A DNA stretch of 64,000 nt from a virus (lineage: Duplodnaviria > Heunggongvirae > Uroviricota > Caudoviricetes): the IMG/VR virus record IMGVR_UViG_3300006201_000009. One strand, 5' to 3'. The position numbers were made by a program, and so were the translations under genes. Below the pieces are notes generated by a model. The model was not told the DNA's origin and searched no databases. It worked only from the letters and a program-made list of their open reading frames with translations. Shown here in pieces: positions 3,955 through 39,956 of the stretch; within the stretch, counting starts at the first letter, position 1; every line of letters begins with the position of its first letter.

Positions 3955-3969
3955 TTTTGCCTCCTTAAA

Positions 3970-4290: not shown

Positions 4291-4301
4291 AATTTATCTC
4301 C

Positions 4302-4916: not shown

Positions 4917-5150
4917 TTATGTGTCAGATTTACTACATTCGCTACAGATCATCTTTCCAAGTTCGGCGTCGCCAAGAGGAGCTCCGCAACAAACGCATAT
5001 TTCCGACATATTACGAAGCTCAAGTTTTTGCTGTTGCCGCAATTTATGGTTAAGCTGTCGTCTTGCTGTTCTTTTCAGCGATGGGGTAACGCTATCAAGG
5101 CGAGCGTCCCATCCGGCGTCTCTCGCAGTAATCTTCTTTGTGCTACGCAT
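4917..5150 (-). CDS. Small zinc-ribbon protein
   Basis: CVCCGAPLGDAELGKMICSECS; start ATGCGTAG overlaps stop of upstream gene (translational coupling). Confidence 0.4.
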   Translation of the reverse strand: MRSTKKITARDAGWDARLDSVTPSLKRTARRQLNHKLRQQQKLELRNMSEICVCCGAPLGDAELGKMICSECSKSDT

Positions 5151-8525: not shown

Positions 8526-9824
8526 TTATGCCGCGGGCGGTGTTGCCATTATCTCTTCAAAGGCGTCAGCGGCTTCTTGTTGCATATGCTCTGTGGCTTT
8601 AACGTAGGTCTGGAGCGTCGTAACGATGCTTCTATGACCAAGTCTCTGCTGTACTGCTTTCGGGCTTACACCGTTCTCTATAAGGAGCGTAGCGTGCGAA
8701 TGACGAAGCGAGTGGAAGTCAAAAGGTGTTTCTATTAGTCCCTGAATGACGCGAGTCGCATACTTGAACGTGTCTGTTGTAGAGAAGATTCCATTCTCTT
8801 CAACGCATACGAAGTTAATATGAGGTTGAACCGTTTCAATACATTTTTGTACCGGCACAATTCTCGTAATCTCATTACCTTTCTCGTCAATCTCATTTAC
8901 TGCCACATAGGTGGTGTAATATTCTCTATAGAGTTGCTCGTTACTTTCTTGGCGTTGCTTTTCTTGGCGGAGAATATCTATAAGGTGGTCTCCAATCTTT
9001 ATCACTCTACACGAGTCATATTTTGGAGGAGCAAAATACCAAGCAGATTTCTCGTTGTTTCTGCGGTAGCGCAATGAAGTCTTTTCTTCCAAACCATAGT
9101 TGCGCTTAATGATCTGTTTGTCAACGTTCAAGGTTTTATTTTCAAAGTCAATGTCTTCCCACGTAACAGCGAACGCCTCTGATATTCTCAATCCGCAGTA
9201 CCACCCAAAGAGAAGGGGGATGTGGAAGCGGTTTCCAAAAGGGAACCGTTGCATTATTTTTTCAAATTCTTCGCGACTTATTACTTGCCTTGCACGTTTT
9301 CGCTTGCCATTAGTAGGGAACTTGATATAAGTGATAGGGTTGTCTCGAATATATTTCAAGGGAAATACTGCGTAATCAAGAGCAACCTTTAAGGTGGAAA
9401 GTATCCCAAAAACATAAGAAATGGAATATCCTTTCTTGCTTAATTCGTTTGCATAGTCTTGCAATACGGAAGGGTTCAAACTTTTAAGTTTGTACATTCC
9501 TATGTGTGGTTTAATGTGTTTCTTGATAAGGTTTTGATATGTCACGAGCGTATTATATTTTAAGTTTGTAACGCAATACTGTTCATACCAATAATCAAGG
9601 TAATCATTAACACCAATCTCGGAGGGTTCAAAGTGAAGTCCTGCCGTATTATACTCCGACATCGCCAAAGCACCTGCTTCCAAGGCTTCTTTTTTTGTTT
9701 TGAACCCAGCCTTGGATATGTGCTTTCTTTTGCCATCAACCCGAGCTGCCTCAAATCGGTATTCCCAGTTTGGTTTCTTGTCGGGCTTGTTTCTGTTCCT
9801 GTCTCTTACGTTAATTTTTGCCAT
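8526..9824 (-). CDS. int: Tyrosine integrase (phage integrase family)
   Basis: C-terminal catalytic region HSLRHSHATLLIENGVSPKAVQQRLGHRSIVTTLQTYVKATE (H-x-x-R ... Y); LRISEAFAVTWEDI (R box); adjacent excisionase. Confidence 0.75.
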   Translation of the reverse strand: MAKINVRDRNRNKPDKKPNWEYRFEAARVDGKRKHISKAGFKTKKEALEAGALAMSEYNTAGLHFEPSEIGVNDYLDYWYEQYCVTNLKYNTLVTYQNLIKKHIKPHIGMYKLKSLNPSVLQDYANELSKKGYSISYVFGILSTLKVALDYAVFPLKYIRDNPITYIKFPTNGKRKRARQVISREEFEKIMQRFPFGNRFHIPLLFGWYCGLRISEAFAVTWEDIDFENKTLNVDKQIIKRNYGLEEKTSLRYRRNNEKSAWYFAPPKYDSCRVIKIGDHLIDILRQEKQRQESNEQLYREYYTTYVAVNEIDEKGNEITRIVPVQKCIETVQPHINFVCVEENGIFSTTDTFKYATRVIQGLIETPFDFHSLRHSHATLLIENGVSPKAVQQRLGHRSIVTTLQTYVKATEHMQQEAADAFEEIMATPPAA

Positions 9825-11480: not shown

Positions 11481-12062
11481 TTACTTTTTGTTCTCTAAAT
11501 TGCTTCCGTTAAAGATATTTGTAAACAATTCTGCCATCGCCGCCTTGAATGTGTTGTCATCGAAAGGATATTCCTTTTTCAATGTTTTTGCGTCTGCTTT
11601 GTTCGGCGCAACATTGGGTGTGGGCGACTTTTCTTTTGTCTTAACCATTGACAGCAAAGGATTGAAAAGTGAGAGGAGGAGTGCATATTTTTCTTCAACG
11701 CTCATCCTTACGTCGAACTCAATTTCATCGCCTATGCCGCCAATAAATTCGTCATACTGCTCGTCCATTTCGTCAGACGCCTCGGCTATTGCGCAAATAT
11801 GTATATCGTGCTTTGTAAACTTCACAAGGAAGCTGACTGACTGAACGTCAAAAGGGAGGTTGAGTGGATGTCCACATTCCTCGAAGTCGTACTGGAATGT
11901 TACGACTTTTTCATCCGCATCGGCGTGTAGCGTCATAATAAGGTTGGGGTCAAATACAGCATCGTCGCATACAAGCTGCTTGCCCTTTGAGTTTCTGTTT
12001 GTACTGAAAAGTTTCATCTCTGATGTTCTCCTAATTTGATAATTTTTTTTCGAGTTGGTCAA
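11481..12062 (-). CDS. Hypothetical protein
   Basis: ORF only. Confidence 0.3.
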   Translation of the reverse strand: MTNSKKNYQIRRTSEMKLFSTNRNSKGKQLVCDDAVFDPNLIMTLHADADEKVVTFQYDFEECGHPLNLPFDVQSVSFLVKFTKHDIHICAIAEASDEMDEQYDEFIGGIGDEIEFDVRMSVEEKYALLLSLFNPLLSMVKTKEKSPTPNVAPNKADAKTLKKEYPFDDNTFKAAMAELFTNIFNGSNLENKK

Positions 12063-13050
12063 TCTTTGAAACTATATCATCGATTGTATAGTTATTGCCT
12101 GCTACGATTTCGTGTATGTCAGTCTTTCCCAGAACGAACTCGCTCACGGACTCACGGGCTTTGTCAAACATCTGTTGATAAGTGCCCAGATATCTCATAG
12201 TGACGCGCTGGTCGCTATGGTTCAAAAGCCCTTGGATTTTCGTGATTGCGTTCATGTCGATACTTGACTTATCTACACAAGCAGCAATGTTGGCGAAGCT
12301 TTTACGCATTGTGTGTGAGCCTATTATAATTGGTAGGTTCAAAGCTTTGCCGGCGTCGGACAAAATCTTCCACCCATATTCCTCAAACATTTTGCCCTTC
12401 GTCTTATTACTTTTGAAGAGGTAATCGTCTAACTCGAAGTCCCAATTTATTGAGTCAAATAACTTCGTCGCCGCGTCTTTGACTGATTGGGTTATCAGGC
12501 AATTATTTATCTTCAAAGTTTTTTGTTCGACGATATACATTCTTTGACGAAATGTTCTATCGTCATTGAGCAAGTAACTTATCTTTAGCGATAGTAAGTC
12601 CGAGATACGCAATCCAAGGCTTACTCCGATTGTCCACAACGCCCAATCACGTATTTTGCCTTGCTCCAAAAAATAATTTTGGATTGACGCAAAGTCTTCA
12701 TATGAACGTATCGGGTCTGCCGGACGTGGTTTCCTTTTGCCGTCGGACTTAAATTCAGAGAATACTATGGGTTCCGCGGCTTCCATTTCGGCTTTTGTTC
12801 GACGCTTACGACGTGGTTTATTTTCAAGCTCGCAAATTTGCCGTTGTAGTTTATCTACGCGATCTTCTGCATCACGTCTCATGATACGTTCAACCGCAAG
12901 CTCTTCAACGAGCTGTTTGTTTTCCAGTTCAAGGCGATCTGCTCTTTCTGCGTCTGTTTCAAATGCCCTTGGAACGGGAAAGTTTAATACAACTGAGTCG
13001 CGGCTACAATCAGTTCGCATCGTCATCTCCCTCCATATATATTTTTTCAA
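12031..13050 (-). CDS. Tyrosine recombinase (second copy) with N-terminal coiled-coil
   Basis: GVSLGLRISDLL (R), GSHTMRKSFA (H-x-x-R), VTMRYLGTY (Y); N-terminal heptad-like region. Confidence 0.55.
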   Translation of the reverse strand: MKKYIWREMTMRTDCSRDSVVLNFPVPRAFETDAERADRLELENKQLVEELAVERIMRRDAEDRVDKLQRQICELENKPRRKRRTKAEMEAAEPIVFSEFKSDGKRKPRPADPIRSYEDFASIQNYFLEQGKIRDWALWTIGVSLGLRISDLLSLKISYLLNDDRTFRQRMYIVEQKTLKINNCLITQSVKDAATKLFDSINWDFELDDYLFKSNKTKGKMFEEYGWKILSDAGKALNLPIIIGSHTMRKSFANIAACVDKSSIDMNAITKIQGLLNHSDQRVTMRYLGTYQQMFDKARESVSEFVLGKTDIHEIVAGNNYTIDDIVSKIDQLEKKLSN

Positions 13051-13208: not shown

Positions 13209-13550
13209 TTAAACTCCTATACCGATAGAAATCATAAGTTTTCTGTTAATGTCGTCAATTTTACTTCTATTAACAACTTCGCCCAACTTTTTCTTAAGTC
13301 TCGTTTTGTCTACAACTCTGACCTGCTCACATAACACCGTAGAAACTTTAAGTATTCCTGCATCGCTTGGCGTCAGCGTAACGTGAGTTTCTATCGGTGT
13401 TTTATCTTGAGATGTGAGAGGGCAAATGATAGTAGTAGGGGAATGTTGGTTCCCTTGTTCATTCTGTACTATCAAAGCGGGGCGAATACCGGTTTGTTCC
13501 GAGCCTACCTGATTACTTAAATCGACTAAATATATTTCGCCTCGGTGCAT
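13209..13550 (-). CDS. mazF: MazF/PemK-family endoribonuclease toxin
   Basis: GEIYLVDLSNQVGSEQTGIRPALIVQNE...IICPLTSQ...VLCEQVRVVDKTRL is collinear with the MazF/PemK consensus. Confidence 0.65.
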   Translation of the reverse strand: MHRGEIYLVDLSNQVGSEQTGIRPALIVQNEQGNQHSPTTIICPLTSQDKTPIETHVTLTPSDAGILKVSTVLCEQVRVVDKTRLKKKLGEVVNRSKIDDINRKLMISIGIGV

Positions 13551-13802: not shown

Positions 13803-15014
13803 TTATATATTGTGTTTAAGTAAGAATTGATTGCTGATACACTTAAAGCTAATTTTGTTGTCGTGGTCTCGTATAACAACGCCTTCTCTAAGCGTATCGC
13901 ACAATGTGGACTTTCCGTCAGCATAAGCAATCATTTCATCGACAGTGGGGAGCAGCTTAAAGTTCGCGTTAATAATCGGAACCCACTTGATTCCAAAGTC
14001 GTGCATCACATCTGTTGCGACTGCGCTGTCCATTTTTACCCCGTCGATTACAAGGTTGAAGGCATAGAAATCAATTCCCTTGAGACCGTATTTATTTTTT
14101 TGAATTGCCTCGCCAATGGTTTCGCCCTGAAGAACGACAGTAGTTGCTTTATATTTTTCAAGTATCTGCATAAGCACGTTGCGGATGTCGTACTTATTGG
14201 CGATTTGGTGGTACACATTGTCGTCGTAGAAACACTTTTGGTTGATGTCGGCTTGGCGCACGTTCCGTGAACACACCGCGAAGTCATATTTTCTTTTCTT
14301 TTCTTTTCTCAACCCAAAGCTCGTAGAGGTGCCGTCCAGCTTTTCAGTGACGACCATTGGCTTGTCCTTGTATGTATCGAGAACGAAAGGCATATTTTGC
14401 AAACGTGTTTCGTCCGTTTTAACGATCCAGTCGGGGAAGTTTTTCGGTTTCTTTTTCGGTGCGAGAAGTTTATAAACGGTTTTTCTAAACCACTTGAACT
14501 TCATAAACCATAAAAATACTTTATTTTTGAAGAGTTTTTTGTGGCGTTGCTTAATTGCCGCCGCGGGGTCTTTGACCTGTTGCTTGGGAACATCATCTTC
14601 GACCTGTTTAATCTTAAGGATGTCGGTAACATCGTCACCGATGCCGTGTGTTTTTTCGTCATGGAGAACAGAGAGGGGGAAGATGATGCCTTGAGATATG
14701 ACGCCGCGCATTTTCATTGTCTTAATTTTATAATGTTTAGACTCAAGAAACGCGAAGTCAGGATTGTCGGAAGGCATAATGCTGTCAATTTCAACGTAGA
14801 TTGCAAGATCGCCAACCTTAAATTCATTCTTTTTTACGATACACTGCCAGCCGAGTATGCCGGCGAGCTCGATTTTGTCAGCTCCTTCGATGGGGCGGAG
14901 CCATGCAATTTGTTCGATGTGAGCAAGTTTTCTCATAATACACTCCAAATTATTTTTTGTGTTTGGAACGAAGCCATTGAATATGTTTTTTAATGCTGTC
15001 TTGACGACTGTCAT
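13803..15014 (-). CDS. ATP-dependent RNA ligase with N-terminal OB-like domain (Rnl5/DraRnl/NgrRnl-like)
   Basis: Nucleotidyltransferase motif I KLDGTS (VVTEKLDGTSTSF); N-terminal MRKLAHIEQIAWLRPIEGADKIELAGILGWQCIVKKNEFKVGDLAIYVEIDS resembles N-terminal domain of this Rnl class. Confidence 0.55.
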   Translation of the reverse strand: MTVVKTALKNIFNGFVPNTKNNLECIMRKLAHIEQIAWLRPIEGADKIELAGILGWQCIVKKNEFKVGDLAIYVEIDSIMPSDNPDFAFLESKHYKIKTMKMRGVISQGIIFPLSVLHDEKTHGIGDDVTDILKIKQVEDDVPKQQVKDPAAAIKQRHKKLFKNKVFLWFMKFKWFRKTVYKLLAPKKKPKNFPDWIVKTDETRLQNMPFVLDTYKDKPMVVTEKLDGTSTSFGLRKEKKRKYDFAVCSRNVRQADINQKCFYDDNVYHQIANKYDIRNVLMQILEKYKATTVVLQGETIGEAIQKNKYGLKGIDFYAFNLVIDGVKMDSAVATDVMHDFGIKWVPIINANFKLLPTVDEMIAYADGKSTLCDTLREGVVIRDHDNKISFKCISNQFLLKHNI

Positions 15015-15328: not shown

Positions 15329-16438
15329 TTAAGGTTTAGGTATGATTATTGTTGCAGAGTCACCGCTCATAACATCTGGCAGTTCTCCGTTCCATTTTGA
15401 TAGATATTCGATATACTTGAGATAATCAGAAATGACAGAAATTTCCTCAGCACTTTTGCCCGTGAAGTCGATAGTGTATTCAATGATTGTTTCTCCATCA
15501 TTGTCTGTAACTTCATTTTCAAGAATAGTAAACCCAAGCATACGAGCAACTTCGATAGACTTAAGTTTTGTTGCTCTCGCCTCTGACTGCGCTATTGTTA
15601 CTTGCGCAGCGGCATCACCTTCGGCGGCGGCTATCTTTGCTTCGGCGTTTAACTTTGCAACAGCGAGCGAAGCTTCCGCTTCAATCTTTGCTATTTGAGC
15701 TGCGGCTTCCGCTTCAATTTTGGCTTTCTCCGCCTCATATTGTGCTTGCAATTGTTGTTGTTCAGCAATCATTTTTTGTTCGACAGTTTGTTCAAAAGCA
15801 TCCGAAAAGTCGATGTTTGTCAGAACGGCGGTATTTATGGTTACGAAATAATTTTCCGATATAACAAGCTTAATTGCGTCTTCAACTTCTGGTGATATTG
15901 AAGCTCTGGTTTCAATAATTGTCATCGCCGAATAGTTTGATAGAACAGATTTGGCACGTTCAATCGATACGCTGCGAATTCTACTTGATAAAGCATCAAG
16001 AGAGCCGTAGGTTGTTGCAATTTCTTTGACTTTATCTGTATCGATTTGATATTGAACTGTCATTGTCAAGTCCATTGTTTGGGCATCTTTTGAATAGGCG
16101 GAATCTTGTATGTCGAGCGTTTGTACCTTGGTATCGTACTTTTCGTATTTTTCCGTGATCCAGAAATCGTAGTACGTCCCTGCTGTGTGTACGTCTTTTA
16201 TCTGTCCGAGATGCTTTACTACGGCAATTTCACCAGTATCTACTGTGTGAAAACTTCCAGGAATAAAGAATGTAAGCAATGCAAATGCAATGCCAAGACA
16301 TAGGCATCCCCATTTGCTAACTTTCCAGCCGATAGCGTCCTCGCCATCATACACTTTGTATGCGCTTATGCCGAATACTACCCAGCCAGCCACACAAAGA
16401 GCAGCAAATAAAAAACCAAGTGTTAATGCTATTGCCAT
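15329..16438 (-). CDS. SPFH/band-7 (prohibitin/flotillin-like) membrane protein with Ala-rich coiled-coil
   Basis: N-terminal TM segments; SPFH-like core (VVKHLGQIKDV...); long A/E/K coiled-coil AEQQQLQAQYEAEKAKIEAEAAAQIAKIEAEA. Confidence 0.5.
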   Translation of the reverse strand: MAIALTLGFLFAALCVAGWVVFGISAYKVYDGEDAIGWKVSKWGCLCLGIAFALLTFFIPGSFHTVDTGEIAVVKHLGQIKDVHTAGTYYDFWITEKYEKYDTKVQTLDIQDSAYSKDAQTMDLTMTVQYQIDTDKVKEIATTYGSLDALSSRIRSVSIERAKSVLSNYSAMTIIETRASISPEVEDAIKLVISENYFVTINTAVLTNIDFSDAFEQTVEQKMIAEQQQLQAQYEAEKAKIEAEAAAQIAKIEAEASLAVAKLNAEAKIAAAEGDAAAQVTIAQSEARATKLKSIEVARMLGFTILENEVTDNDGETIIEYTIDFTGKSAEEISVISDYLKYIEYLSKWNGELPDVMSGDSATIIIPKP

Positions 16439-16462
16439 TATTGTGTAAATCTCCTTAAAAAA

Positions 16463-17101
16463 TTAGTGCTTATTAAATACAACGGACTCGCCGCTCTTAA
16501 TGTTCCAACACTGCAAGCAATTCGTGCAATCGCCAGAGCATTCAGCCGCGCTTTCCGGTATAGATTTGTTTTCGCTTTCCTTAAACCGAACATACGCAAC
16601 AGGGAAGGAGTATGGATTTTCAACTTTGAAATCGTCACCCCAAGCGCTAAATACGATGTGCAGGTTATCGGGAATAGTGCCGCCATTTTGTATGTATTCG
16701 TTTACAAGTTCAAACTTTTTAGTAAACGCAAGGAAGGATGTGAGGGGAAGTTCATTGGCGACTTTAACGACGCCCTCAAAATATTCTTTATCTACGAAAT
16801 CGCCCGAAGCGTGCCAACGAAAGTAAGAATATGAAACCATTCCGTTGTTGATTGCGTGTTTAATTTCTTCAAAGTATGACGCAGGATCGTGAAAGTAAAG
16901 CTTGTAATTGTTTGTTAGATTGTCCTTTACGTTTTGAAAACGAAAGCGTCCCTTTGTGGCATAGCAATCTTTTGCGCATGGGCAATGTGGTCGGCAGGTT
17001 GTTATCGGCGGCAAGTTCACCGACGGTATCAACCCAAGTTTGCTGTTGGTAGTTGATATCTTTACTGGCATATAAATCTCCTTATTTGGCTCATTGTCCA
17101 A
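16463..17101 (-). CDS. Cys-rich putative Fe-S protein (DUF5131-like?)
   Basis: CRPHCPCAKDC and CSGDCTNCLQC clusters. Confidence 0.3.
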   Translation of the reverse strand: MDNEPNKEIYMPVKISTTNSKLGLIPSVNLPPITTCRPHCPCAKDCYATKGRFRFQNVKDNLTNNYKLYFHDPASYFEEIKHAINNGMVSYSYFRWHASGDFVDKEYFEGVVKVANELPLTSFLAFTKKFELVNEYIQNGGTIPDNLHIVFSAWGDDFKVENPYSFPVAYVRFKESENKSIPESAAECSGDCTNCLQCWNIKSGESVVFNKH

Positions 17102-17150
17102 AGAGAAGATTTATATTTAGTTAAGTCAGTCTCTTTGGACTGAGAAGTTG

Positions 17151-17906
17151 TTACTCTAACGTAGCGGGCATATTTCTCTTGTGCTCTGACGCTTGGTGCA
17201 TTTGCTCTATTTTTAGAGCGGTTTCGTAATCCGTGTTTGAAGTTCCACCCGTGATATACCCGTCAAGCGTTGAGTATGTAAAGCCGAAACTATCTTCGTC
17301 ACTCTTGCCGCATAATCCATCGGACGGTGTCTTAACGACATACTTTTTATCTAATCCGAACTCCTCAGCAAGCAGTTCGCCGAGAGCAATAACCTCGGTA
17401 CAGGTTAGATGGGCAATGGGGTTGAAGTCGTATGCGCTGTCGCCCCATTTGGTTGTCCAACCGATATAAGCCTCGCTTGCATTGCCTGTTCCAATAACCC
17501 TGTATCCAAGGGTTTGGGCAATGGCGTACAGCACTGTCATACGAATACGAGGAGGGATATTGGTAAGTGATTTTCTTGAGATATTAAATACCTTACCGTT
17601 ACAATAATCCGAGCCAGAACCTTCGTCTTCGACAACCTCGAGCAATGAGTCATAAACTTTTCCGATATTAACTACCTTGAAGTTTATCCCAAGGGTTTCA
17701 ACAATTTTGAGAGAGTCGTCAAGGTCGGATTGGTTGTGATTTGGCATAAGAACGCCAAGCACATTGTCCCCCCAAACTTTCTTCGCAAGCATTGCTACAA
17801 CGGTGCTATCTTTGCCGCCACTTATTCCAAGAACAACTCCGCGACATCTTGTAATTTCTTTGTACTGTTCAAGCCAGTCTAATATTTCTTTTAGTTTAGC
17901 TTCCAT
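17151..17906 (-). CDS. nadE: NH3-dependent NAD+ synthetase (PP-loop ATP pyrophosphatase)
   Basis: PP-loop SGGKDS in GVVLGISGGKDSTVVAMLA; size 251 aa. Confidence 0.65.
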   Translation of the reverse strand: MEAKLKEILDWLEQYKEITRCRGVVLGISGGKDSTVVAMLAKKVWGDNVLGVLMPNHNQSDLDDSLKIVETLGINFKVVNIGKVYDSLLEVVEDEGSGSDYCNGKVFNISRKSLTNIPPRIRMTVLYAIAQTLGYRVIGTGNASEAYIGWTTKWGDSAYDFNPIAHLTCTEVIALGELLAEEFGLDKKYVVKTPSDGLCGKSDEDSFGFTYSTLDGYITGGTSNTDYETALKIEQMHQASEHKRNMPATLE

Positions 17907-18367
17907 ATTTCAACCTTCCATTTATCGTCGGCAAATTCTTCTTCGATGATTTTTCTCACTATGTTCCAGTCGCCGCCACCCAGTCCGCAACCGATGCCAT
18001 AAGGGAAGCCAATAGTAAATTCTGTATCGGCAATCTCTATCGGAATAAGGGTTTTAAGTTGTTGGCAGCATAGCCTAAACATCTCATAGTTCGTATGGTT
18101 AATGCCACGCGGCAAGTAATGAAGCTGTGCGAACATATTAGCAATGTAGTGGGTCTTAGCCTCTGAAATTGCGCATATTTGAGCAACTCCCATTAGGTAT
18201 TCCAGTTTATTCTGCTCGCATAGCTGTTTATATTTTGAAAAGATATGGGGGTAAGTGGCGCGTATCTGTTTTGCGATGCCTGAACCCATAACTCCTTGAC
18301 AGTTTACTTGGTGGCAGATGATATTGCAGTTGCTTTTAAGCAAATCTCCGTTTTTATATGTGATCAT
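17891..18367 (-). CDS. Macro-domain protein (ADP-ribose binding/hydrolase)
   Basis: ITYKNGDLLKSNCNIICHQVNCQGVMGSGIAKQI matches the macrodomain N-terminal signature. Confidence 0.6.
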   Translation of the reverse strand: MITYKNGDLLKSNCNIICHQVNCQGVMGSGIAKQIRATYPHIFSKYKQLCEQNKLEYLMGVAQICAISEAKTHYIANMFAQLHYLPRGINHTNYEMFRLCCQQLKTLIPIEIADTEFTIGFPYGIGCGLGGGDWNIVRKIIEEEFADDKWKVEIWKLN

Positions 18368-19860
18368 TAAAATTTATCTCCATAAAGCCTTCTGCGGACA
18401 TCGGCAAGACTATATTCGAGCGTCATCTTGCCGTCGTTAAAGACCGTCTTTAGGGCATTGTCGGCACGATAAGTCTCTTTGAAGTCGTGTTCGTCTTCGC
18501 TTGTTAACGCGCCGTCAGCCCCCGTTAAAACGAGCACACAGCCTTTGTGAGACTTTTTGAACGAAGCCTCTTTGGGATTTTTGAAAATCATTATAGGCTT
18601 TCCGTCTTTATCTTCAGCATAAGTCGCCTTGATGGCAATTCCGAACGTATCTCTTGTGTAGGGGTTGAACGTCGGGATAGCAGCGTGTTCCTCGTAAGAC
18701 TCAAGGCATTGCATAGAGAAGCTACCAACACCGAGAGCAACATTGCTTGCTGCAAATCCGTTGTCAACCAATATCGTGTAAATTGCTTCTGCTCTTTGAG
18801 GCGTAATGCTATCGCCGTATATTGCCTTGATATGGGGGTTTAGAACCTTGTAGCCCTTTGAGTTGACTGTTCCACCGAACTGCTCCCAAAGGTGGAACAC
18901 GGTCTTTGTGACGACCTCAACGGGGTCGCCAGAGTCGCCGCGCACCAAGAGACATCCGTTATGCTCGAGGATTTCTTTCTTACACATTGGCAAGATGTTG
19001 TCTACCAAGTTCCAGTAATCGTAGCTGTCGCTCACCATACTGAAAGACGTATTAGGATAGATTTCTGTGAGCAGACGCTTAATCATTGTGATTTCGTCAC
19101 CGTCAACCGCGAAATTGCTGCACATTACAGAGTGCTCAGTTGACACAGAACCAAAGCCGACTTCCTCTTTTGAACAGTCGCAGTTATAATATCTTTCCAT
19201 ATAATCTACCGCAGGAACGGTGGCAGTGTTCACGAATGATAACAGCCAACCGGCGGAAGATTTATATGCACTACGTTTTGACTCTTGTCCTCTCATTGAG
19301 AAATCTCCAAGAGCTTTTCTACGAGGGATATTGTCGTCGCAACTTAAATCATAGAAGTGATCTACAATTTTCCTATATTTGTACCCGACATTTGCCGAAA
19401 TCATGGCGTGCCACATTTCGCAACTGATGACAGATTCGAGCGCGTTTGTAAGCCAAGCAAAATCGGGGTGAGTGTTGCTTATCTCGAACATAGGAACGCC
19501 GATTGGAACGAGAGTGCCTTCTGCGAGTGCCTTAATCTCAATGGGCAGATAGCCCAAGTCGTGTAGTTCTGCGATGCGCTCAATGCCGTACAACCCTTCA
19601 CCGAGTGTGTTGTTGAGGAGATGTTTGTATTCGCGTACAACGTCTTCCTTAGGACGGGAAAAGAAGAACTCGTTAAAGTCTTCGATAAGATATTCTTTGA
19701 TGAAAGACTGTAACCCAAACATTATAAGGTGTTTATCGTTCTTTAATCTGCTCATTCTTGGCACAAAATAGCTTACGACCTTCGTGATGCCTTTTGGATA
19801 TTGGTTCCAATGAACTTGTTTATAAAAATCGCTTTCTAAAAGCGGGTTAATTCTGTACAT
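18367..19860 (-). CDS. nadV: Nicotinamide phosphoribosyltransferase (NAMPT/NadV)
   Basis: ESDFYKQVHWNQYPKGITKVVSYFVPR N-terminal NAMPT signature; 497 aa. Confidence 0.65.
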   Translation of the reverse strand: MYRINPLLESDFYKQVHWNQYPKGITKVVSYFVPRMSRLKNDKHLIMFGLQSFIKEYLIEDFNEFFFSRPKEDVVREYKHLLNNTLGEGLYGIERIAELHDLGYLPIEIKALAEGTLVPIGVPMFEISNTHPDFAWLTNALESVISCEMWHAMISANVGYKYRKIVDHFYDLSCDDNIPRRKALGDFSMRGQESKRSAYKSSAGWLLSFVNTATVPAVDYMERYYNCDCSKEEVGFGSVSTEHSVMCSNFAVDGDEITMIKRLLTEIYPNTSFSMVSDSYDYWNLVDNILPMCKKEILEHNGCLLVRGDSGDPVEVVTKTVFHLWEQFGGTVNSKGYKVLNPHIKAIYGDSITPQRAEAIYTILVDNGFAASNVALGVGSFSMQCLESYEEHAAIPTFNPYTRDTFGIAIKATYAEDKDGKPIMIFKNPKEASFKKSHKGCVLVLTGADGALTSEDEHDFKETYRADNALKTVFNDGKMTLEYSLADVRRRLYGDKF

Positions 19861-20656
19861 TTAGTAAGCCCTCCCTGTAACACCTTGTGACTTTGAGTTT
19901 TGGATGTGATACGGTACAAATACTGTCGGTAGTGAACACTGCATCTATATGATCGAACACCTCACCCTTAAGAATGTTATTCTCGCAATGTGATACAACG
20001 AGGGTAATATGTTCGACACCGCGTTTTCTTAATTCTTTCGCCGCCGCAACGAATGTTCCACCGTAGCTACAAATGTCGTCACGAATGATAACGCTCTTTG
20101 TCCCTTCTACGAAGTTCATCAACTCATAGCTTTCAATACGACCATCCGTGTTGCGGTGTTTATTTCCGATAATGAAAGGGTTGTCTGTCGGCTCAAGATG
20201 ATAACGAGGAGCGTACTTCTTTGCAGCTCCGTTGTCAGGAAACATAATGGTTGCTTGCTCATCTTTGGGCGAAACCCTGAACGGTAAGTCACTTTCTTCC
20301 ACACGATCAATGAGTGCCATTGAAACATCGGAGTGGGGGTCGAGTACAAACACTTTGTTAAACTTCATAAGATTTATGAGTTCTGCAAAATATTTGAGGG
20401 TAAACAGTCTATTGCTGACGTTTCTGTCTTGCCGTGCATGAGGAATATACGGCATACAAAGATTTATGAGAAGTGTAGGGTGTTGCTGGCGAATGTGTCC
20501 TACAAGACTCCACAGGCAAAACAGCTCTGCGTCATTGTCGTAGCACCACGTAATATAGATAAAACCACGCGCCGCTGCAATTGGTGGAATAGGGCATTTA
20601 AGCGTTCCGTCGCCAAATGTTTCTTGTTTAATAATCGTGTCTTCGATTTTAATCAT
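19847..20656 (-). CDS. prs: Ribose-phosphate pyrophosphokinase (PRPP synthetase)
   Basis: PRPP-binding loop IIRDDICSYGGTFVAAAKEL; DPHSDVS motif; linked to nadV as in other phage NAD salvage modules. Confidence 0.6.
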   Translation of the reverse strand: MIKIEDTIIKQETFGDGTLKCPIPPIAAARGFIYITWCYDNDAELFCLWSLVGHIRQQHPTLLINLCMPYIPHARQDRNVSNRLFTLKYFAELINLMKFNKVFVLDPHSDVSMALIDRVEESDLPFRVSPKDEQATIMFPDNGAAKKYAPRYHLEPTDNPFIIGNKHRNTDGRIESYELMNFVEGTKSVIIRDDICSYGGTFVAAAKELRKRGVEHITLVVSHCENNILKGEVFDHIDAVFTTDSICTVSHPKLKVTRCYREGLLNVQN

Positions 20657-20677
20657 TGTGTTTCTCCGTTATATGTC

Positions 20678-21448
20678 TTAGTCTTCGGATACAGCGCCGA
20701 GTTCTAATAAAATTGGTACGAGTTCATCTTCCAAGAAAATGTCATACCACTCGTCGAATGCGTCCTTTGTTGCTTCGTTGAACTTGCTTGCTTCGATGTC
20801 TGGCTTTAGGTCATAACCGACGTCATACAAAGCACAATCGGATAATGTTCCTTCGCCGTTAAGATAACCGTGTTCTTGTGCCCAGCTATGCACAAATGCC
20901 CTTAACTCATCGTTTGAGTTAATAACTGCAATCTGGCAACTGTGCATAACTTCCAACGCGGCTTCGTGCTTCTCTTTTGTTAGCCCTGCGCATAAGTCGG
21001 CAAGAACAAGTATGTTTGCTTTGCTGAACAAGGTTACAAGGTTAAGAGCGTTAGATACGACGCAAATATCGGTACAGGTTCCGCATAGTTGAATTTCTTC
21101 TGGGAACTCGCACTTTGTTTTAATTGCAACGTACAGCGGTGTACCCGCTGAGAATGTGGTTTTGTTCACTTTAAGGATTGTTGCCTTAGGGTTGCGCTCT
21201 GCCGCCGCGTAGATTTCTGTATTGATGTTCCATCCCTCAGTTAAGGCGATGCAGTGGGGGACTGGTAGGTTCTTGCCCTCGCGAGTGTCGAGATAATCTT
21301 CCTCGTGTGTGTCTCTTGTAAAAACAATCAGACCTTCAAAGTTCGATACATAGTTAGCAACTTTATTAACGATTGCCTGTGCCATAGGATTAGCCAGCGA
21401 ACCGTCGATAAAATCGTTCTGCATATCGACAACAACTAAAACTTTCAT
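20678..21448 (-). CDS. pncA: Nicotinamidase / isochorismatase-family cysteine hydrolase (PncA-like)
   Basis: VVVDMQNDF, catalytic Cys context LCGTCTDICV. Confidence 0.6.
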   Translation of the reverse strand: MKVLVVVDMQNDFIDGSLANPMAQAIVNKVANYVSNFEGLIVFTRDTHEEDYLDTREGKNLPVPHCIALTEGWNINTEIYAAAERNPKATILKVNKTTFSAGTPLYVAIKTKCEFPEEIQLCGTCTDICVVSNALNLVTLFSKANILVLADLCAGLTKEKHEAALEVMHSCQIAVINSNDELRAFVHSWAQEHGYLNGEGTLSDCALYDVGYDLKPDIEASKFNEATKDAFDEWYDIFLEDELVPILLELGAVSED

Positions 21449-21602
21449 TGTTCCTCCTGAATTTTTATTTCTTGTAATACTTGCTCTTTTGTTTGTATGC
21501 GTCGAGCATATTCAAGCGCATCCTCGAATGAAGAAGCCTTGATATTTTCCGTCGAAAAGCTATTCTTGTCCAGCTCGTAGAAAGTTATTAAATAGTTTTC
21601 CA

Positions 21603-21842
21603 TTATTTTTGTCCTGTTAGAATGTATTTAAGTTTTGCTTGATCTTCCGGTGTATCCATAGAGGGTTGATAAACGTTGCCACCGTCAGGTGAATTGTAGT
21701 CCACATATAATTGACCATTTTCATACCAAGCGGCTTCGATTTCTTCATCGTCCTCGAAAACAAAAACATCATAAATGCGGTCAATTTGTTCTTTGGTTAA
21801 ATAGTTATTCAAATCGTTTGGTGTTATCATATACGCCTCCAT
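21603..21842 (-). CDS. Hypothetical acidic small protein
   Basis: ORF only. Confidence 0.3.
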   Translation of the reverse strand: MEAYMITPNDLNNYLTKEQIDRIYDVFVFEDDEEIEAAWYENGQLYVDYNSPDGGNVYQPSMDTPEDQAKLKYILTGQK

Positions 21843-21891
21843 GCGCGGAAAAGTTTTGCGACGAATAATTAGCTCATTCGTCGTTATTGAT

Positions 21892-21968
21892 TGGTCGGAG
21901 CGACAGGATTTGAACCTGCGACCTTATGATCCCAAATCATACGCACTACCAAACTGTGCTACGCCCCG
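21892..21968 (-). tRNA. tRNA-Pro (anticodon UGG), CCA encoded
   Basis: Acceptor CGGGGCG/CGCTCCG, D arm GCACAGTTTGGTAGTGC, loop TTTGGGA, T loop GGTTCAAATCC, CCA. Confidence 0.7.
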
Positions 21969-22097
21969 ATGGCGGGTTAACGTGACCCGAACGGCATATC
22001 CCATAATTTAGCGCCGAAATGTGGTGCAACATTGTACTTCTGTTACATAATCCAACATTTCATTTAGGGCTATGGAAATCATTTGCTCTAACCCTCG

Positions 22098-22174
22098 TTG
22101 GTCGGAGTGAGAGGACTCGAACCCCCAAATTGCTGATCCTAAGTCAGCCGCCTATGCCAATTCGGCTACACTCC
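22098..22174 (-). tRNA. tRNA, type I, anticodon-loop CTTAGGA (anticodon UAG; Leu-like anticodon but no long variable arm)
   Basis: Acceptor CGGAGTG/CACTCCG + CCA; T loop TTCGAGT; D loop AATTGGCATA shared with two neighbours. Confidence 0.5.
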
Positions 22175-23898: not shown

Positions 23899-23978
23899 TG
23901 GTGGAGCTGTTGGGATTTGAACCCAAGTCCTACGAATTCACTTTGGTTTTAATCGTAGTCGAAACCTTTCTCAGCCCC
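23899..23978 (-). ncRNA. tRNA-like RNA with canonical acceptor stem, T arm and CCA but aberrant D/anticodon region
   Basis: GGGGCTG...TTGGGTTCAAATCCCAA CAGCTCC A CCA; central part folds as an 5-bp stem (TACGA/TCGTA) with a 17-nt loop rather than a cloverleaf. Confidence 0.4.
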
Positions 23979-26066: not shown

Positions 26067-26849
26067 TTAGTCATCAATTACAATGCAGTTTATTTGCTTT
26101 GAGTAAGCCGTACAAGCGTCAAGTGCTATGATGCCGTCAGCGTAAAAAGGGGAGAAGTCTGCATCATCGCCGTACTCACTCTTAATTTTTCCTACGAGCT
26201 TATGCCCGAATGATGTGTTCCAATGTCCGCAGACAATGGTTTTGTTCGGTATCGTTGCTCCACACTCAACTGCAAGAGACATCCCGTTTTCCCAGCGAGC
26301 CTCAGCCCATTCTTCGTCCGTCGCTTCTTTCAAGTTTTTAACGTAATATCCTTCTTGTGGATCAACGCCACAAGGCACCCAGCCGTGAACGAATACATAA
26401 TGCTCTGTCTCATAATAATTCAACATCTTTGGTATGATTATGCGAACGAGGGGAGTAGCGGCGGTAGCTCTTGATACCGCTAAAATATCATCGTACAGGT
26501 CTCTCATTTTCTTTCCCGTTAATTGAAACGCCGTATCGAGGGTTTTGTTGCTTGCATGATGCGAATATGCAATAGCAAACGGGTCGCCTTCATCCATATC
26601 TTTTATCATATCCAGCGTTAAATCTTCGTGATTGCCGCGAATGAGTATGACCTTATCCTTTTTGAGCAAAGATAGGATATAATCCTGCATCTTGCGTGCT
26701 TCCTTACCGCGATCCATTAAATCACCGCAAATAATAACCTTGTGTTCAGGATTGTTTTCGTCAAATCCTTGCTCAAGCAGCGCATTGTGCAATAAGGCGA
26801 AGAACCCGTGAGGGTCTGCTGTTACAAAATATTTCATATAATTCCTCAC
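26067..26849 (-). CDS. Calcineurin-like metallophosphoesterase (Ser/Thr phosphatase/ApaH-like)
   Basis: ADPHG, GDLMDRG, GNHE motifs. Confidence 0.6.
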   Translation of the reverse strand: MRNYMKYFVTADPHGFFALLHNALLEQGFDENNPEHKVIICGDLMDRGKEARKMQDYILSLLKKDKVILIRGNHEDLTLDMIKDMDEGDPFAIAYSHHASNKTLDTAFQLTGKKMRDLYDDILAVSRATAATPLVRIIIPKMLNYYETEHYVFVHGWVPCGVDPQEGYYVKNLKEATDEEWAEARWENGMSLAVECGATIPNKTIVCGHWNTSFGHKLVGKIKSEYGDDADFSPFYADGIIALDACTAYSKQINCIVIDD

Positions 26850-27346
26850 GTTTCAAAAATCAGTATCGGTTGATAGTTTATTCTCTCAACGCTGACGCAC
26901 TTCGTGGTTGCTGTATCGTGATATTTTTCATCGTTATGGATGTGTCCATAGTAATTAAAATACGGCGTTGTTTCGCTCAACTGAAGGGGAGCGTGCGACA
27001 ACAGAAAGAAGTTGTTATAAAGTATCGGAAATTTTGACACGTATGAGAAACCAGCCTCACGATAAAATTCATCTGACCAATTATCGTGGTTGCCCTTAAT
27101 GAGAATTTTCTTACCATTAAGTTGTTTGATGATTTCTCTGCAACGCTCTTTACGTCCAAGCATAAAATCCCCGAGGTGTATTATTGTGTCTTGTTGTGTA
27201 ACCACGGCATTCCAATTTTTTATTAAAGCCTTGTCCATATCCTCGACTGAGCGGAATGGGCGGTTGCAATAGCGGATAACATTCTCATGTCCGAAGTGCG
27301 TGTCGGCAATAATAAATATTTTCATATCAGTTGCTCCTTGAACCAC
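26846..27346 (-). CDS. Small metallophosphoesterase
   Basis: ADTHFGH, LGDF, GNHDNW motifs; 166 aa. Confidence 0.55.
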   Translation of the reverse strand: MVQGATDMKIFIIADTHFGHENVIRYCNRPFRSVEDMDKALIKNWNAVVTQQDTIIHLGDFMLGRKERCREIIKQLNGKKILIKGNHDNWSDEFYREAGFSYVSKFPILYNNFFLLSHAPLQLSETTPYFNYYGHIHNDEKYHDTATTKCVSVERINYQPILIFET

Positions 27347-28156: not shown

Positions 28157-28819
28157 TTAAAGTCCTGTTTGTTCTGTATGGAAGCAGAGCGGCTGACCTG
28201 TTGTTTTGTCGATACCTTCACCAATAACTCGTATATACTTATCGTGCTTCGTGCTTGTCTGCTCAATGTAGACCGTGCCCTTAAAATTCTTAATAAGCGT
28301 AGTTGTCCACGGTTTTTCGGTGTGATAATCGAATTGCGGGTTGTAATTTAATACCTCGGACAAAAGGAAAACGCCAACCATACCAGCATCAGCACAGAAT
28401 TTGCCAAGCTCCCTATTCGTCTTGTCCTCAAAGGTGGTGCAGCTCCAATCACCGTAGATTGTGCTGTTGGTGAGGTATGTGGTGAGACCAAGTTTTTCCA
28501 TTTCATCCCCGTATGAGCAGATATACCAGTCATCAGGGTGAGCTTTATCCCACGCATCGTAAGCTTCACGCATTTTGTCGTACTGAGGGCGGAATTCATT
28601 CTTCATAATGTCAGCAATTTGCTCAGCCGTTAACCCTTCAGCTGCGAGGTCTTTGTCGTTGTAGCTTTTCCTGCTCATATAATCGTCCCACTTGGGTTCG
28701 TCGGTTGTGTCGCGATCCTTGGTAATATAACAAGGGTCTGTTATAATGATATCTCCGTCAAATGACATTAATTTGAGACGTTCTCTGACCATAATTTTCT
28801 CCTTACGCGCCGGCAACAT
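28157..28819 (-). CDS. Hypothetical protein (ITDPCY motif)
   Basis: ORF; no confident family. Confidence 0.3.
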   Translation of the reverse strand: MLPARKEKIMVRERLKLMSFDGDIIITDPCYITKDRDTTDEPKWDDYMSRKSYNDKDLAAEGLTAEQIADIMKNEFRPQYDKMREAYDAWDKAHPDDWYICSYGDEMEKLGLTTYLTNSTIYGDWSCTTFEDKTNRELGKFCADAGMVGVFLLSEVLNYNPQFDYHTEKPWTTTLIKNFKGTVYIEQTSTKHDKYIRVIGEGIDKTTGQPLCFHTEQTGL

Positions 28820-29699
28820 CGCACTGATGAAAAGTGTCTAATAATTTCGACAACTCGTCTGGCAATGCCGCGCTATATTTTGTGTGAAGGAACACATCCA
28901 TATGTACGTTAATAAGCCAATAAATCAATGCTCTCTGTTTGATATGTAGGGGAATGGTTTCTTCGTATCCAATGGCGAAGTAGCTTCCCACATTTTGATG
29001 GTTGTAGAAGTGAGCAATCTCGCTCGGTTCGCCGCGGCTATTCTTAAAGCCTTTCACGAATTTTTTCCCAATATCGTGTAGACTTGCCGCAATAAGCAAC
29101 GTAATTGCAACTCCTTTGTGTGAACTTCTGTTTTTCTGCAATTTTGCGGCTTCCGTCATAACTTTCAAAGTGTGTTCTTTGACTGTGTTGTTATGATGAG
29201 GATTGTCGTGTTCGCAATCGAGCCAATTTTCATAATCGCTGTGCTTATAAGATTCGTCGTTTACCTTAAACTCAATTTCATCCCAGCCCTCATCGTAATA
29301 GGGTGGCTGAAAATTAAGAAGCATACGCTTAATGACACTTTCGCCTACATTACGATTTCTGCTACAGTCCCTCGCTACGCAAGTTTCGTATCTTGCCCAT
29401 ACTACGCAGGCGATTTTCTTGCAAGGTATTTTGAGACTCGATAAGAGATGTTTGCGCTTTTTGCGACTGATGTTGGTTGCATCATATACAACATTCTTGC
29501 TGCTTTTAAGTGCGGCGATAGTGCGGCGCTGCATTTCCTCAAATATTTTAGAAGGGTTGTCCTGAATAGCTTCGTCGCCATAGAACTCTTTTCTTATCGC
29601 GTCGGAGGATAAAATAATTGTATTGTCGTTGGTGAGTTGTTTTGCAACCTCGGTTTTGCCGGAGCCAGGCAATCCTATAAGCATAGTGAATTTAACCAT
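28803..29699 (-). CDS. P-loop polynucleotide-kinase-like domain fused to HD phosphohydrolase (HD-Pnk-like)
   Basis: Walker A LIGLPGSGKTEVAKQL; C-terminal HD motif LLIAASLHDIGKKF; GGAGAGG RBS before MVKFTMLIG start. Confidence 0.5.
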   Translation of the reverse strand: MVKFTMLIGLPGSGKTEVAKQLTNDNTIILSSDAIRKEFYGDEAIQDNPSKIFEEMQRRTIAALKSSKNVVYDATNISRKKRKHLLSSLKIPCKKIACVVWARYETCVARDCSRNRNVGESVIKRMLLNFQPPYYDEGWDEIEFKVNDESYKHSDYENWLDCEHDNPHHNNTVKEHTLKVMTEAAKLQKNRSSHKGVAITLLIAASLHDIGKKFVKGFKNSRGEPSEIAHFYNHQNVGSYFAIGYEETIPLHIKQRALIYWLINVHMDVFLHTKYSAALPDELSKLLDTFHQCDVAGA

Positions 29700-30054
29700 A
29701 GACGACCTCTCCAAAAATCGCATACTGGATAATTGCGTCTGCATCTTCGGCATCGATTTCACCTGCATCGATTTTTCCTTCGTAAAGAATATCAAGCCCA
29801 CGCTCTTCGGCAATCTTTGTTAATCCGGCTATAAACTTTTCAAGATTAAGTTCATACCATTTGTCTTCATCGGAATCGTGAAGCCTAAGTGTGCCGCCGC
29901 GAGAAATCTGATCGCTTGCATATTCTCCGAGATGATCTCCAACAACTTCGGCGCAATCACACCAGTAAGAAATCCCGCCATCTAATGCGGTGCTCATTAT
30001 ATCGTCAATGCACTGATTGTCGTATTCAACTTCATAAGTAATGGTAAGTTTCAT
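29692..30054 (-). CDS. Hypothetical acidic protein
   Basis: Start MKLTITYE preceded by GAGG RBS and GTGTCTAAATATG motif; longer ORF-track version would translate the motif. Confidence 0.35.
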   Translation of the reverse strand: MKLTITYEVEYDNQCIDDIMSTALDGGISYWCDCAEVVGDHLGEYASDQISRGGTLRLHDSDEDKWYELNLEKFIAGLTKIAEERGLDILYEGKIDAGEIDAEDADAIIQYAIFGEVVYG

Positions 30055-31925: not shown

Positions 31926-32474
31926 AAATATTTGCCGTTACAATCCATGTAAGAAATTGTTGATCATGAAGAGTCACTGAAGTCCGCCACGATGGAAGTT
32001 CTGTAAGTTCGTTAATCATAAATTTGATATTTTGTCAAGAAAGTTTCAATTGAAAGTGGGAAAATAAATTTATTTTCTTGCCGAATTACATTTGTTGTTG
32101 GCTCTTTCTGTGTCGAATTCCTCACCATATTGGTTTCAGGAGCAGGTGATTGCGCATTTGCTGCCTCTGGCAGGCACCGTCTCTCTGACATTTTGGCACT
32201 TTAGATTTAACCTAAAGCTCTATCCGAAGATAGACATAACGATTGTAATGTGAAGCTCAAATACGAGAAAGGGGCGGCGGCAAGCTCCAGAGGAGAGCCG
32301 CCGTTTACGAATCTAACTTTTATCATAAATTAAACTCAAGTTCGCAGAAATTGGTTTAATTTATTATCAAAGTTGGATTTGTATGTGGGATTGTCTTGTT
32401 ACATCCGATATAACCAGATGCCCAATGCTATGTATTAAATTGGAATTTCTATTTAAGCTTCATTTGCTTTTGTC
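31926..32474 (-). ncRNA. ~550-nt non-coding region downstream of RT containing structured repeat element A (candidate ncRNA)
   Basis: No ORF >=60 aa; contains conserved element at 32186-32260 with covarying hairpins. Confidence 0.3.
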
Positions 32475-39950: not shown

Positions 39951-39956
39951 AAATGA

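Follow-up and report, generated by a model that had tools for sequence, protein, structure and literature searches.

A phage operon predicted to rebuild NAD+ from ADP-ribose by way of nicotinate and deamido-NAD

Introduction

Why would a phage place a nicotinamidase (PncA) and an NH3-dependent NAD+ synthetase (NadE) on either side of two genes that resemble those for a phosphoribosyl pyrophosphate (PRPP) synthetase (Prs) and a nicotinamide phosphoribosyltransferase (NAMPT)? The question is raised by a five-gene operon in the IMG/VR virus record IMGVR_UViG_3300006201_000009, a stretch of 64,000 nucleotides (nt) of caudoviricete DNA that we analyzed over its whole length and refer to as the window. 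A first-pass annotation, made from the DNA letters alone, had read the five genes as a salvage cluster composed of PncA, Prs, NAMPT, a macrodomain protein, and NadE. Here, we propose that the operon is very probably a phage NAD+ reconstitution module of the NARP1 type with an associated macro phosphatase and, at a probability of roughly 0.6, that this module is rerouted through deamidated intermediates, namely nicotinate and deamido-NAD (nicotinic acid adenine dinucleotide; NaAD).

NAD+ depletion is among the commonest bacterial anti-phage strategies, and descriptions of the phage pathways for NAD+ reconstitution (NARP1, NARP1-AP, NARP2, and NARP3) date only from 2024-2026. In NARP1, known from phages Bas63, SPbetaL1, and Fado, Adps turns ADP-ribose (ADPR), with ATP, into ADPR pyrophosphate (ADPR-PP), which Namat combines with nicotinamide to yield NAD+; the pathway has no nicotinamide mononucleotide (NMN) step, and the host genes pncC and nadR are not needed (Osterman et al. 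2024). In NARP1-AP, the macro phosphatase Adpp extends NARP1 to ADPR-1''-phosphate, the aRES product (Osterman et al. 2026 preprint); the system is defined by a macro gene (PF01661, PF14519, or PF20016) lying within two genes of the NARP1 pair.

Results

A five-gene operon framed by PncA and NadE

Five adjoining open reading frames (ORFs), all on the minus strand, occupy positions 17151-21448 exactly as the first-pass annotation had placed them (Table 1). In the order of transcription, namely PncA, Adps, Namat, Macro, and NadE, the intergenic spacing is +21, -14, -1, and -16 nt, so the genes are packed like an operon, with the adps and namat genes overlapping by 14 nt and the macro gene overlapping both of its neighbors. 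An array of 14 tRNAs lies directly upstream. A promoter and terminator scan of positions 16300-22100 returned sites no more frequently than in shuffled sequence and is silent on the operon boundaries. The window as a whole is phage DNA, as indicated by its terminase, primase-helicase, ERF, and RNA ligase genes. Stop-codon recoding was considered in view of phAss-1, a published gut phage and distant relative whose genetic code is 15; recoding was ruled out by stop usage (TAA 46, TGA 12, and TAG 4) and by the 89% of the window that is coding under translation table 11.

The two outer enzymes bear out their first labels. The PncA domain spans amino acids (aa) 1-178, belongs to PF00857, and has as its nearest solved relatives the nicotinamidases/pyrazinamidases 1ilw/1im5, 3pl1, and 3o90; its catalytic triad (D8/K96/C129) and metal ligands (D46/H48/H65) are invariant across six homologs. 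It is followed by a C-terminal extension of 78 aa, which is acidic, lacks a Pfam match, and is restricted to close relatives. This extension looks like a small accessory protein that is fused to PncA in the window, because a homologous piece stands apart, between Adps and Namat, at the related locus L184. NadE scores 184 bits against TIGR00552 (cut-off 63.65), has an invariant SGGKDS PP-loop and no glutaminase domain, and finds only NH3-dependent NAD synthetases as its top solved relatives. It is predicted from these features to convert NaAD, NH3, and ATP to NAD+. Two doubts had been raised at the outset, namely that the genes might be pseudogenized in relatives and that NadE might be a GMP synthase or tRNA thiolase. 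More than 150 related loci carry the operon genes in intact form, and tRNA-thiolase, GMP-synthase, and QueC models score just 17-27 bits on NadE, which, set against its PF02540 and TIGR00552 scores, excludes another PP-loop enzyme.

As first noted, the window holds no NMN adenylyltransferase (NMNAT): a Pfam scan of all its ORFs of at least 90 aa returned no CTP_transf_like, Nudix, or second NAPRTase domain, and tblastn of the window with phage PncB and NadD queries matched solely the NAMPT-like gene itself.

The two central genes encode Adps-type and Namat-like proteins

The protein first labeled a PRPP synthetase falls short of every threshold for that family. Its Pfam scores are 22.2 for Pribosyltran (gathering 26.3) and 17.1 for Pribosyl_synth (gathering 27), and it reaches 72 bits against the NCBIfam Prs model TIGR01251, whose cut-off is 113, with all equivalogs far under their cut-offs. 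The same protein matches phrog_619 at 205 bits, and tblastn with it reached 1409 records from phage groups known to carry NARP1, among them Felixounavirus, Kayvirus, Pakpunavirus, and ICP1. Against the Adps proteins of Bacillus, Felixounavirus, Kayvirus, and ICP1 phages, its scores run from 170 down to 70 bits, whereas E. coli Prs scores 52 bits. Residues corresponding to the catalytic F18, R87, H121, D161, K185, D212, and D213 of ICP1-Adps are kept, and the PP loop, DDICSYGGTF, is like that of Staphylococcus and Bacillus phage Adps. The protein is also shorter than E. coli Prs (269 aa versus 315 aa) and is without the C-terminal regulatory/filament module of Prs (helices α11-12). A true Prs is thus excluded by the failed cut-offs, the score preference for Adps, the length, and the active-site features, and the protein belongs to the phage Adps family, with a predicted conversion of ADPR and ATP to ADPR-PP and AMP.

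The neighboring protein, first labeled NAMPT, is closest to a Namat. It scores 391 bits against PDB entries 9w5x/9w5w, as compared with ∼310 bits against H. ducreyi NadV and ∼174 bits against human NAMPT; 9w5x was confirmed to be the SPbetaL1 Namat by matching the published residue numbering. The AlphaFold2 model of the protein (pLDDT 87.9, pTM 0.89) has these same two Namat crystal structures as its best fold matches, with TM scores of 0.88-0.91. In the region of the adenine "selectivity clamp" (the SCH clamp motif), the window enzyme reads GSFSMQC, then an insertion of 15 aa, and then YTRD, which departs from the clamp motif of NARP1. The clamp residues F392, R40, T398, and D400 are retained, Y396 is replaced by Cys, and the insertion is modeled, with moderate confidence, as a β-hairpin.

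The first-pass annotation had inferred a reliance on host NadD/NadR and had drawn a contrast with described phage NAD reconstitution by taking the NAMPT and NMNAT pair as its reference. This was the wrong comparison, because the NARP1 pair as published consists of just such a Prs-like gene with a NAMPT-like gene behind it (Osterman et al. 2024). Since a NARP1-type core needs no NMNAT, the absence of this enzyme is expected and implies no host dependence.

The pyridine pocket of the Namat variant is altered at the amide-binding position

In SPbetaL1 Namat, nicotinamide binds in a pocket made up of F189, R192, D215, A242, R306, D13', and Y15', where the amide is hydrogen-bonded by D215 (Namat-structure paper). 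In the window enzyme, Asp215 is replaced by Ala213, Ala242 by Ser240, and Gly213 by Asn211, while all other catalytic and NAD-contacting residues, including the catalytic His, are retained. The same changes recur in all 52 distinct homologs that are linked to PncA/NadE, including that of phAss-1 at 32% identity: each has (N/K/R)-T-(A/S) at positions 213-215 and Ser at 242 (SPbetaL1 numbering). Within the pocket of these 52 proteins, only D215 (to Ala or Ser) and A242 (to Ser) are changed, together with G213 (to Asn, Lys, or Arg). The canonical Namats compared have G-(T/S)-D and Ala242 without exception (7/7). The three-residue signature of (N/K/R)-T-(A/S) and Ser242 thus tells the variant from the canonical enzyme. 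Moreover, the pocket states are bimodal among 150 representatives of 50%-identity clusters, with 91 showing Asp and Ala, 50 showing Ala/Ser and Ser, and almost none a mixture of the two.

Nicotinate-using enzymes and mutants of related transferases bear on this substitution. Genuine PncB enzymes from sister loci (described below) have Ser (in "GTSN") and Thr at the positions aligned to 215 and 242, in a MAFFT alignment of low identity that was anchored on the F-x-x-R and phospho-His motifs. A D215A mutant of SPbetaL1 Namat showed an ∼8-fold drop in NAD+ formation from nicotinamide (Namat-structure paper), and among the tabulated human NAMPT mutants D219S switches the substrate affinity and D219A is inactive.

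Adps and the Namat variant exchange with PncB and NadD between PncA and NadE

A megablast search with the cluster gave no match among 50,697 phage records, and relatives were therefore reached through protein searches. The closest, with a Namat-like protein 96% identical to that of the window, are 180-190-kb contigs in metagenome-assembled genomes of mouse-gut Christensenella and other gut Clostridia. The arrangement PncA-Adps-Namat-(Macro)-NadE is kept in three IMG/VR relatives at 47-81% identity, and the cassette genes also occur in phAss-1 and, in another order, in a human fecal contig. Two irregularities were seen in these relatives. In the 214-kb IMG/VR relative L005, Adps is split by an insert of ∼1.3 kb (positions 2299-4405, with matches at 2299-3018 and 4286-4405), which could represent an intron or the insertion of a homing endonuclease. 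In phAss-1 (L006, 5784-6203), the Namat variant and NadE are separated not by a macro gene but by one for a 139-aa protein that matches phrog_1238 ("phosphoheptose isomerase", SIS-like); L097 has an unassigned 139-aa ORF in the same slot, and these proteins may be an alternative accessory enzyme.

A search anchored on NadE added 80 viral loci, giving 85 in total. PncA, Adps, Namat, and NadE occur together at 55 of them, 30 of which also have Macro, and 20 others have PncA and NadE without NARP genes. Between or beside PncA and NadE, these 20 loci carry a genuine PncB (NAPRTase_N plus NAPRTase, 216 bits) and a CTP_transf_like enzyme of the NadD type, so that PncA, PncB, NadD, and NadE there constitute, as judged from their domains, a complete Preiss-Handler set. 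The two contents are nearly exclusive: neither PncB nor NadD was found at 58 of the 59 NARP-type loci around NadE, the remaining one having a NadD-like gene, while PncB and/or NadD were found at 22 non-NARP loci, 19 of which have both. On neighbor-joining trees, the Adps/Namat and PncB+NadD contexts interchange at least 10 times for NadE and at least 8 times for PncA.

The association was also examined from the Namat side. Of four variant Namats picked solely by their homology, three are accompanied by Adps and NadE, and by PncA where the contig reaches; these add three further gene orders. A GTDB scan anchored on the variant Namat gave 80 loci, all four genes being present at 59; most of the other variant loci are on short contigs or on contigs cut near the cassette. 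In a control scan anchored on canonical Namats, 80 loci yielded Adps at 74 and Macro at 11, and NadE, PncA, PncB, and NadD at none. When the Namat-anchored loci are pooled, NadE accompanies the variant at 72/87 and PncA at 76/87, as against 0/87 each for the canonical enzyme (Fisher p ∼1e-34). The repeated module exchanges are the better argument than these pooled counts, because the counts are not phylogenetically independent. Overall, the cassette is kept through at least five different gene orders.

One copy is bacterial. In Clostridium sp. LP20 (L258, 7741-12219), the order NrtR-Adps-PncA-Namat variant-NadE is found among housekeeping genes on a 2.9-Mb contig, and this cassette is chromosomal and apparently not part of a prophage. 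The LP20 NrtR consists of NUDIX and NrtR_WHD domains, and a further locus, L100, looks similar. NrtR is an ADP-ribose-responsive repressor of NAD genes.

Proposed pathway and alternative readings

We propose the following route, in which a host NADase (TIR, SIR2, RES, and similar) first splits NAD+. Where needed, the macro protein would convert ADPR-1''-phosphate to ADPR; Adps would use ADPR and ATP to make ADPR-PP; PncA would turn the freed nicotinamide into nicotinate and NH3; the Namat variant, with its amide-recognizing Asp replaced, would join nicotinate and ADPR-PP to give NaAD and pyrophosphate; and NadE would complete NAD+ from NaAD, NH3, and ATP. Adps and the Namat variant would thereby stand in place of PncB and NadD, with ADPR used instead of PRPP and ATP, and host NMNAT, PncB, and NadD would all be dispensable. 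The sequences show the gene identities, their conservation, the pocket substitutions, and the genomic associations; from these we infer every enzymatic step, above all the nicotinate specificity. The proposed pathway is the simplest, as it uses every gene, needs no host enzyme, and explains both the altered pocket and the displacement of PncB and NadD. A role in countering NAD-depleting defenses, which the first-pass annotation had suggested, is still the best reading of the cluster.

Several observations weigh against the deamidated route. (i) Most members of the clade, phAss-1 excepted, have the adenine clamp broken by an insertion of 9-26 aa, and Y396 is lost; because this motif is interrupted, the use of ADPR-PP is presumed from the adjacency of Adps. 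(ii) The D215A mutation lowers the activity of canonical Namat without abolishing it, and N211/S240 could restore an amide-binding site, with nicotinamide staying the substrate. Wild-type human NAMPT has been crystallized with nicotinic acid (6ta0), and the Asp is therefore not an absolute discriminator. (iii) The pocket switch takes two Fitch changes, i.e., one or two origins, which makes the raw association counts phylogenetically non-independent. (iv) Individual loci deviate: L098 (protein P0223) has a variant Namat with no partner genes in its 13-kb contig, L187 has a NadR-like gene, and L074 is the NARP-type locus with a NadD-like gene. (v) Among the solved relatives of NadE, second place goes to the Francisella enzyme 3fiu, which we take to prefer nicotinic acid mononucleotide (NaMN), so the choice of NadE between NaAD and NaMN cannot be read from its sequence. 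(vi) The search for PncB, NadD, and NMNAT was made over the 64-kb window; the genome comes to roughly 180-190 kb in all.

One alternative, which we consider unlikely, is that a canonical NARP1-AP system is combined with a separate Preiss-Handler boost, such that the Namat-like enzyme uses nicotinamide and makes NAD+ directly while PncA and NadE speed the first and last steps of the host route. The retention of all catalytic and ribose/phosphate-contacting residues of Namat, as well as the residual nicotinamide activity of the D215A enzyme, would fit such an arrangement, yet it leaves unexplained why every PncA/NadE-linked enzyme shows the pocket switch and none of the 87 canonical loci does. 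PncA and NadE can form a module of their own, as they do at the 20 loci without Adps and Namat, but the phages concerned bring their own PncB and NadD rather than using those of the host, and the near mutual exclusion of Adps+Namat and PncB+NadD is likewise left without a reason. A phage nicotinamidase would, moreover, compete for substrate with a nicotinamide-using Namat. This alternative lies near the first-pass view that the cluster combines both salvage branches; that view touched something real, although the evidence favors one linear, deamidated pathway over parallel branches.

An improbable alternative concerns the macro protein, which matches PF01661. Alone or with the distant NADAR protein (see below), it would act against DarT by stripping ADP-ribose off DNA and would have no part in the rebuilding of NAD, much as the first-pass annotation had suggested a reversal of DarT-type ADP-ribosylation. 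Its best solved matches are 5m3i (49.6 bits) and 5m31, which we take to be the DarG macrodomains of M. tuberculosis and T. aquaticus, and it matches the NCBIfam DarG model below threshold (74 bits versus 250). However, the Lys in the PTK motif of 5m3i, presumably the DarG catalytic residue, aligns to Gln in the macro protein, on which ground a DarG-type enzyme is rejected. The macro proteins that Vibrio phage Javier and Pakpunavirus encode as part of NARP1-AP have the same Gln, together with the other motifs. The macro protein also matches phrog_335 ("phosphatase") at 137 bits and is 28% identical end to end (E 7e-16) to gp172 of the Vibrio harveyi phage Javier, which is flanked by Adps and Namat, an arrangement that matches the published operon of Vibrio phage Gary. 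It has the motifs N-x-(Y/F)-x-Q and IGCGLxGGDW in common with Adpp-type proteins, and its N-terminal part matches 6lfu, an ADP-ribose 1''-phosphate phosphatase (Poa1p series, cited as 6LFQ). Its position, inside the operon and overlapping both neighbors, and the frequency of macro genes, which occur in 14-35% of related cassettes and at 11/80 canonical NARP1 loci, further argue against an anti-DarT role; a share of 15% was reported for Adpp (Osterman et al. 2026 preprint). The protein is better explained, by its motifs and its place, as the NARP1-AP phosphatase Adpp, which would convert ADPR-1''-phosphate to ADPR.

Finally, it is very improbable that a true Prs and a true NAMPT make NMN for adenylylation by host NadD/NadR, with PncA and NadE adding a deamidated branch: the Pfam names (NAMPT_N/NAPRTase), the weak Pribosyltran matches, the passing of NCBIfam PRK09198, and the missing NMNAT would suit this reading, but the Prs-like protein is Adps by score, length, and active site, its partner is far nearer Namat than NadV or NAMPT, identical annotations proved wrong in Bas63, where the counter-defense is independent of host pncC and nadR, and 94% of phages with a true Nampt also carry Nmnat (Osterman et al. 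2024), which the 64-kb window does not.

Other features of the window

The NADAR domain noted in the first-pass annotation is present; its gene, at a distance of 11 kb from the NAD operon, also encodes an N-terminal P-loop kinase domain, AAA_28, which had gone unmentioned (Table 1). We take AAA_28 to be the Pfam family that holds the NadR ribosylnicotinamide kinase domain. Candidate roles for the fusion protein are ADP-ribose/NAD handling or guanine de-ADP-ribosylation.

Table 1. Coordinates of the NAD operon and of other features in the window
Feature	Positions	Strand	Remarks
NH3-dependent NAD+ synthetase NadE, 251 aa	17151-17906	-	NAD_synthase PF02540, 180 bits
Macro-domain protein, Adpp-like, 158 aa	17891-18367	-	Macro PF01661, 30.9 bits
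Namat-like (putative) ADPR-PP transferase, 497 aa	18367-19860	-	NAPRTase 69.5 bits and NAMPT_N 41.3 bits
Adps-type (predicted) ADP-ribose pyrophosphokinase, 269 aa	19847-20656	-	Prs-like; Pfam matches below gathering scores
PncA, 256 aa	20678-21448	-	Isochorismatase PF00857, 75.5 bits
C-terminal extension of PncA, 78 aa	20678-20914	-	No Pfam match
AAA_28-NADAR fusion gene	5143-6144	-	NADAR PF08719, 92 bits, aa 204-330; AAA_28, aa 21-175
Three tyrosine-recombinase genes, HTH_17 excisionase-like gene, PemK/MazF toxin gene	8526-9824, 12031-13050, 54855-55847; 13209-13550
RNA ligase, two calcineurin-like phosphoesterases, AAA_33/KTI12-type kinase	13803-15014, 26067-27346, 28803-29813		RNA ligase: PHA02142 OB-fold and RNA_ligase
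tmRNA model match	23899-23978	-	Rfam, 80 nt, 69 bits (gathering 47)
Reverse transcriptase region	32167-33918	-	RVT_1, 32475-33623
Direct repeats around RVT_1, 71 nt	32167-32237 and 33848-33918		77% identical
ThiF-family gene	33935-34609
Two large ORFs	34612-35550 and 35528-36913		No Pfam match
DUF2828 + DUF7788 protein gene	38167-40002	-	Adjoins tandem tRNA-like matches
Tandem tRNA-like Rfam matches, 117-119 nt	39832-39950 and 39957-40073	-	At 5' end of DUF2828 + DUF7788 gene

Several features are associated with the tRNA array. It is flanked by genes for an RNA ligase, two calcineurin-like phosphoesterases, and a kinase of the AAA_33/KTI12 type, a set that suggests a toolkit for tRNA repair in response to anticodon nucleases. 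Within the array, the Rfam tmRNA model finds a match, ARAGORN calls no tmRNA, and the match is probably a tRNA-like fragment. Elsewhere, a tandem pair of tRNA-like matches lies at the 5' end of a DUF2828 + DUF7788 gene; the true start of this gene is probably an internal Met, because the ORF call runs into the tRNA-like matches. The pair and the gene together recall Ro60/Rsr proteins with Y-RNA-like (YrlA) tRNA mimics.

Mobile functions are also represented. A reverse transcriptase gene stands between direct repeats and is followed by a ThiF-family gene and two large ORFs; this region may be a retroelement or a defense/counter-defense module. The tyrosine-recombinase, excisionase-like, and toxin genes are conserved in the 96%-identical relatives (L093), in a phage that otherwise looks like a large one of the virulent type, and they could reflect the insertion of mobile elements or a temperate lifestyle.

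Discussion

The operon resembles NARP1 in that a NAMPT-like transferase directly follows Adps, which has kept its catalytic residues, the nearest sequence and predicted fold are those of Namat, no NMNAT is required, and the presumed role is against NAD-depleting defenses. It differs from NARP1 in the replacement of Asp215 and Ala242 and the insertion in the SCH clamp, in the flanking of the pair by a nicotinamidase and NadE (both missing from the 87 canonical loci), and in its predicted transferase product, which is NaAD rather than NAD+. With NARP1-AP of Vibrio phage Gary, it shares a macro gene directly beside the NARP1 pair, here immediately downstream of Namat, whose product has full-length homology to the Javier macro protein; in contrast, the macro gene of the window follows Namat, the identity is ∼28%, and PncA and NadE are added. 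The Preiss-Handler pathway (PncA-PncB-NadD-NadE) has the same first and last enzymes and the same predicted penultimate intermediate, NaAD, and related phages carry it in the same genomic slot; the window, however, is without PncB and NadD, which Adps and the Namat variant replace, and ADPR, not PRPP, would supply the ribose phosphate and AMP moiety. NARP2 (Nampt/NadV and Nmnat; Vibrio phage KVP40) and NARP3 (PnuC and a NadR-like protein; Bas30) likewise rebuild phage NAD+ through enzymes of the NAMPT superfamily or of salvage, whereas the window has no Nmnat, NadR, or PnuC, its transferase groups with Namat and not with NadV, and its pathway would start from ADPR.

In the searchable literature, neither PncA/NadE together with NARP1 or ADPR-PP, nor a nicotinate-using Namat, nor a "NARP4" is described. 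The full texts of the NARP1, NARP1-AP, and Namat-structure papers contain no such cassette, and the one mention of Preiss-Handler in the NARP3 paper does not describe it either. The phAss-1 paper annotates the cassette genes without discussing them, and a survey of gut jumbo phages reports pncB-nadD-nadE clusters and NAMPT counts, not the PncA-Adps-Namat-NadE cassette. A nicotinate-routed variant of NARP1 thus appears to have no prior description in the literature searched. Pipeline labels, namely "Prs", "NAMPT", and "nicotinate phosphoribosyltransferase", mask the pathway.

What advantage such a route would give is a matter of speculation. Nicotinamide may be quickly deamidated in the hosts or may leak out, and the cassette may help to explain how phages survive in hosts that deamidate nicotinamide fast. 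As to its origin, we speculate that the cassette may descend from a phage Preiss-Handler cluster.

On balance, we lean toward regarding the Namat variant as a new activity, a nicotinate:ADPR-PP ADP-ribosyltransferase making NaAD, and the whole as a further pathway, "deamido-NARP1" (PncA-Adps-transferase-NadE, with or without Adpp). If true, this would be a new enzyme specificity by which ADP-ribose is recycled via nicotinate and deamido-NAD, and it would account for the presence of a nicotinamidase and NadE in many gut phages. It would also reveal a two-gene module, Adps plus transferase, that has repeatedly swapped with PncB and NadD within a conserved pathway frame. The cassette is widespread in large phages of gut Clostridia, and by the same slight preference the NrtR-regulated operon of Clostridium would be an unrecognized bacterial means of recycling ADP-ribose and nicotinamide to NAD+; the NrtR-controlled chromosomal copy suggests that a housekeeping route of NAD recycling has been overlooked in this genus.

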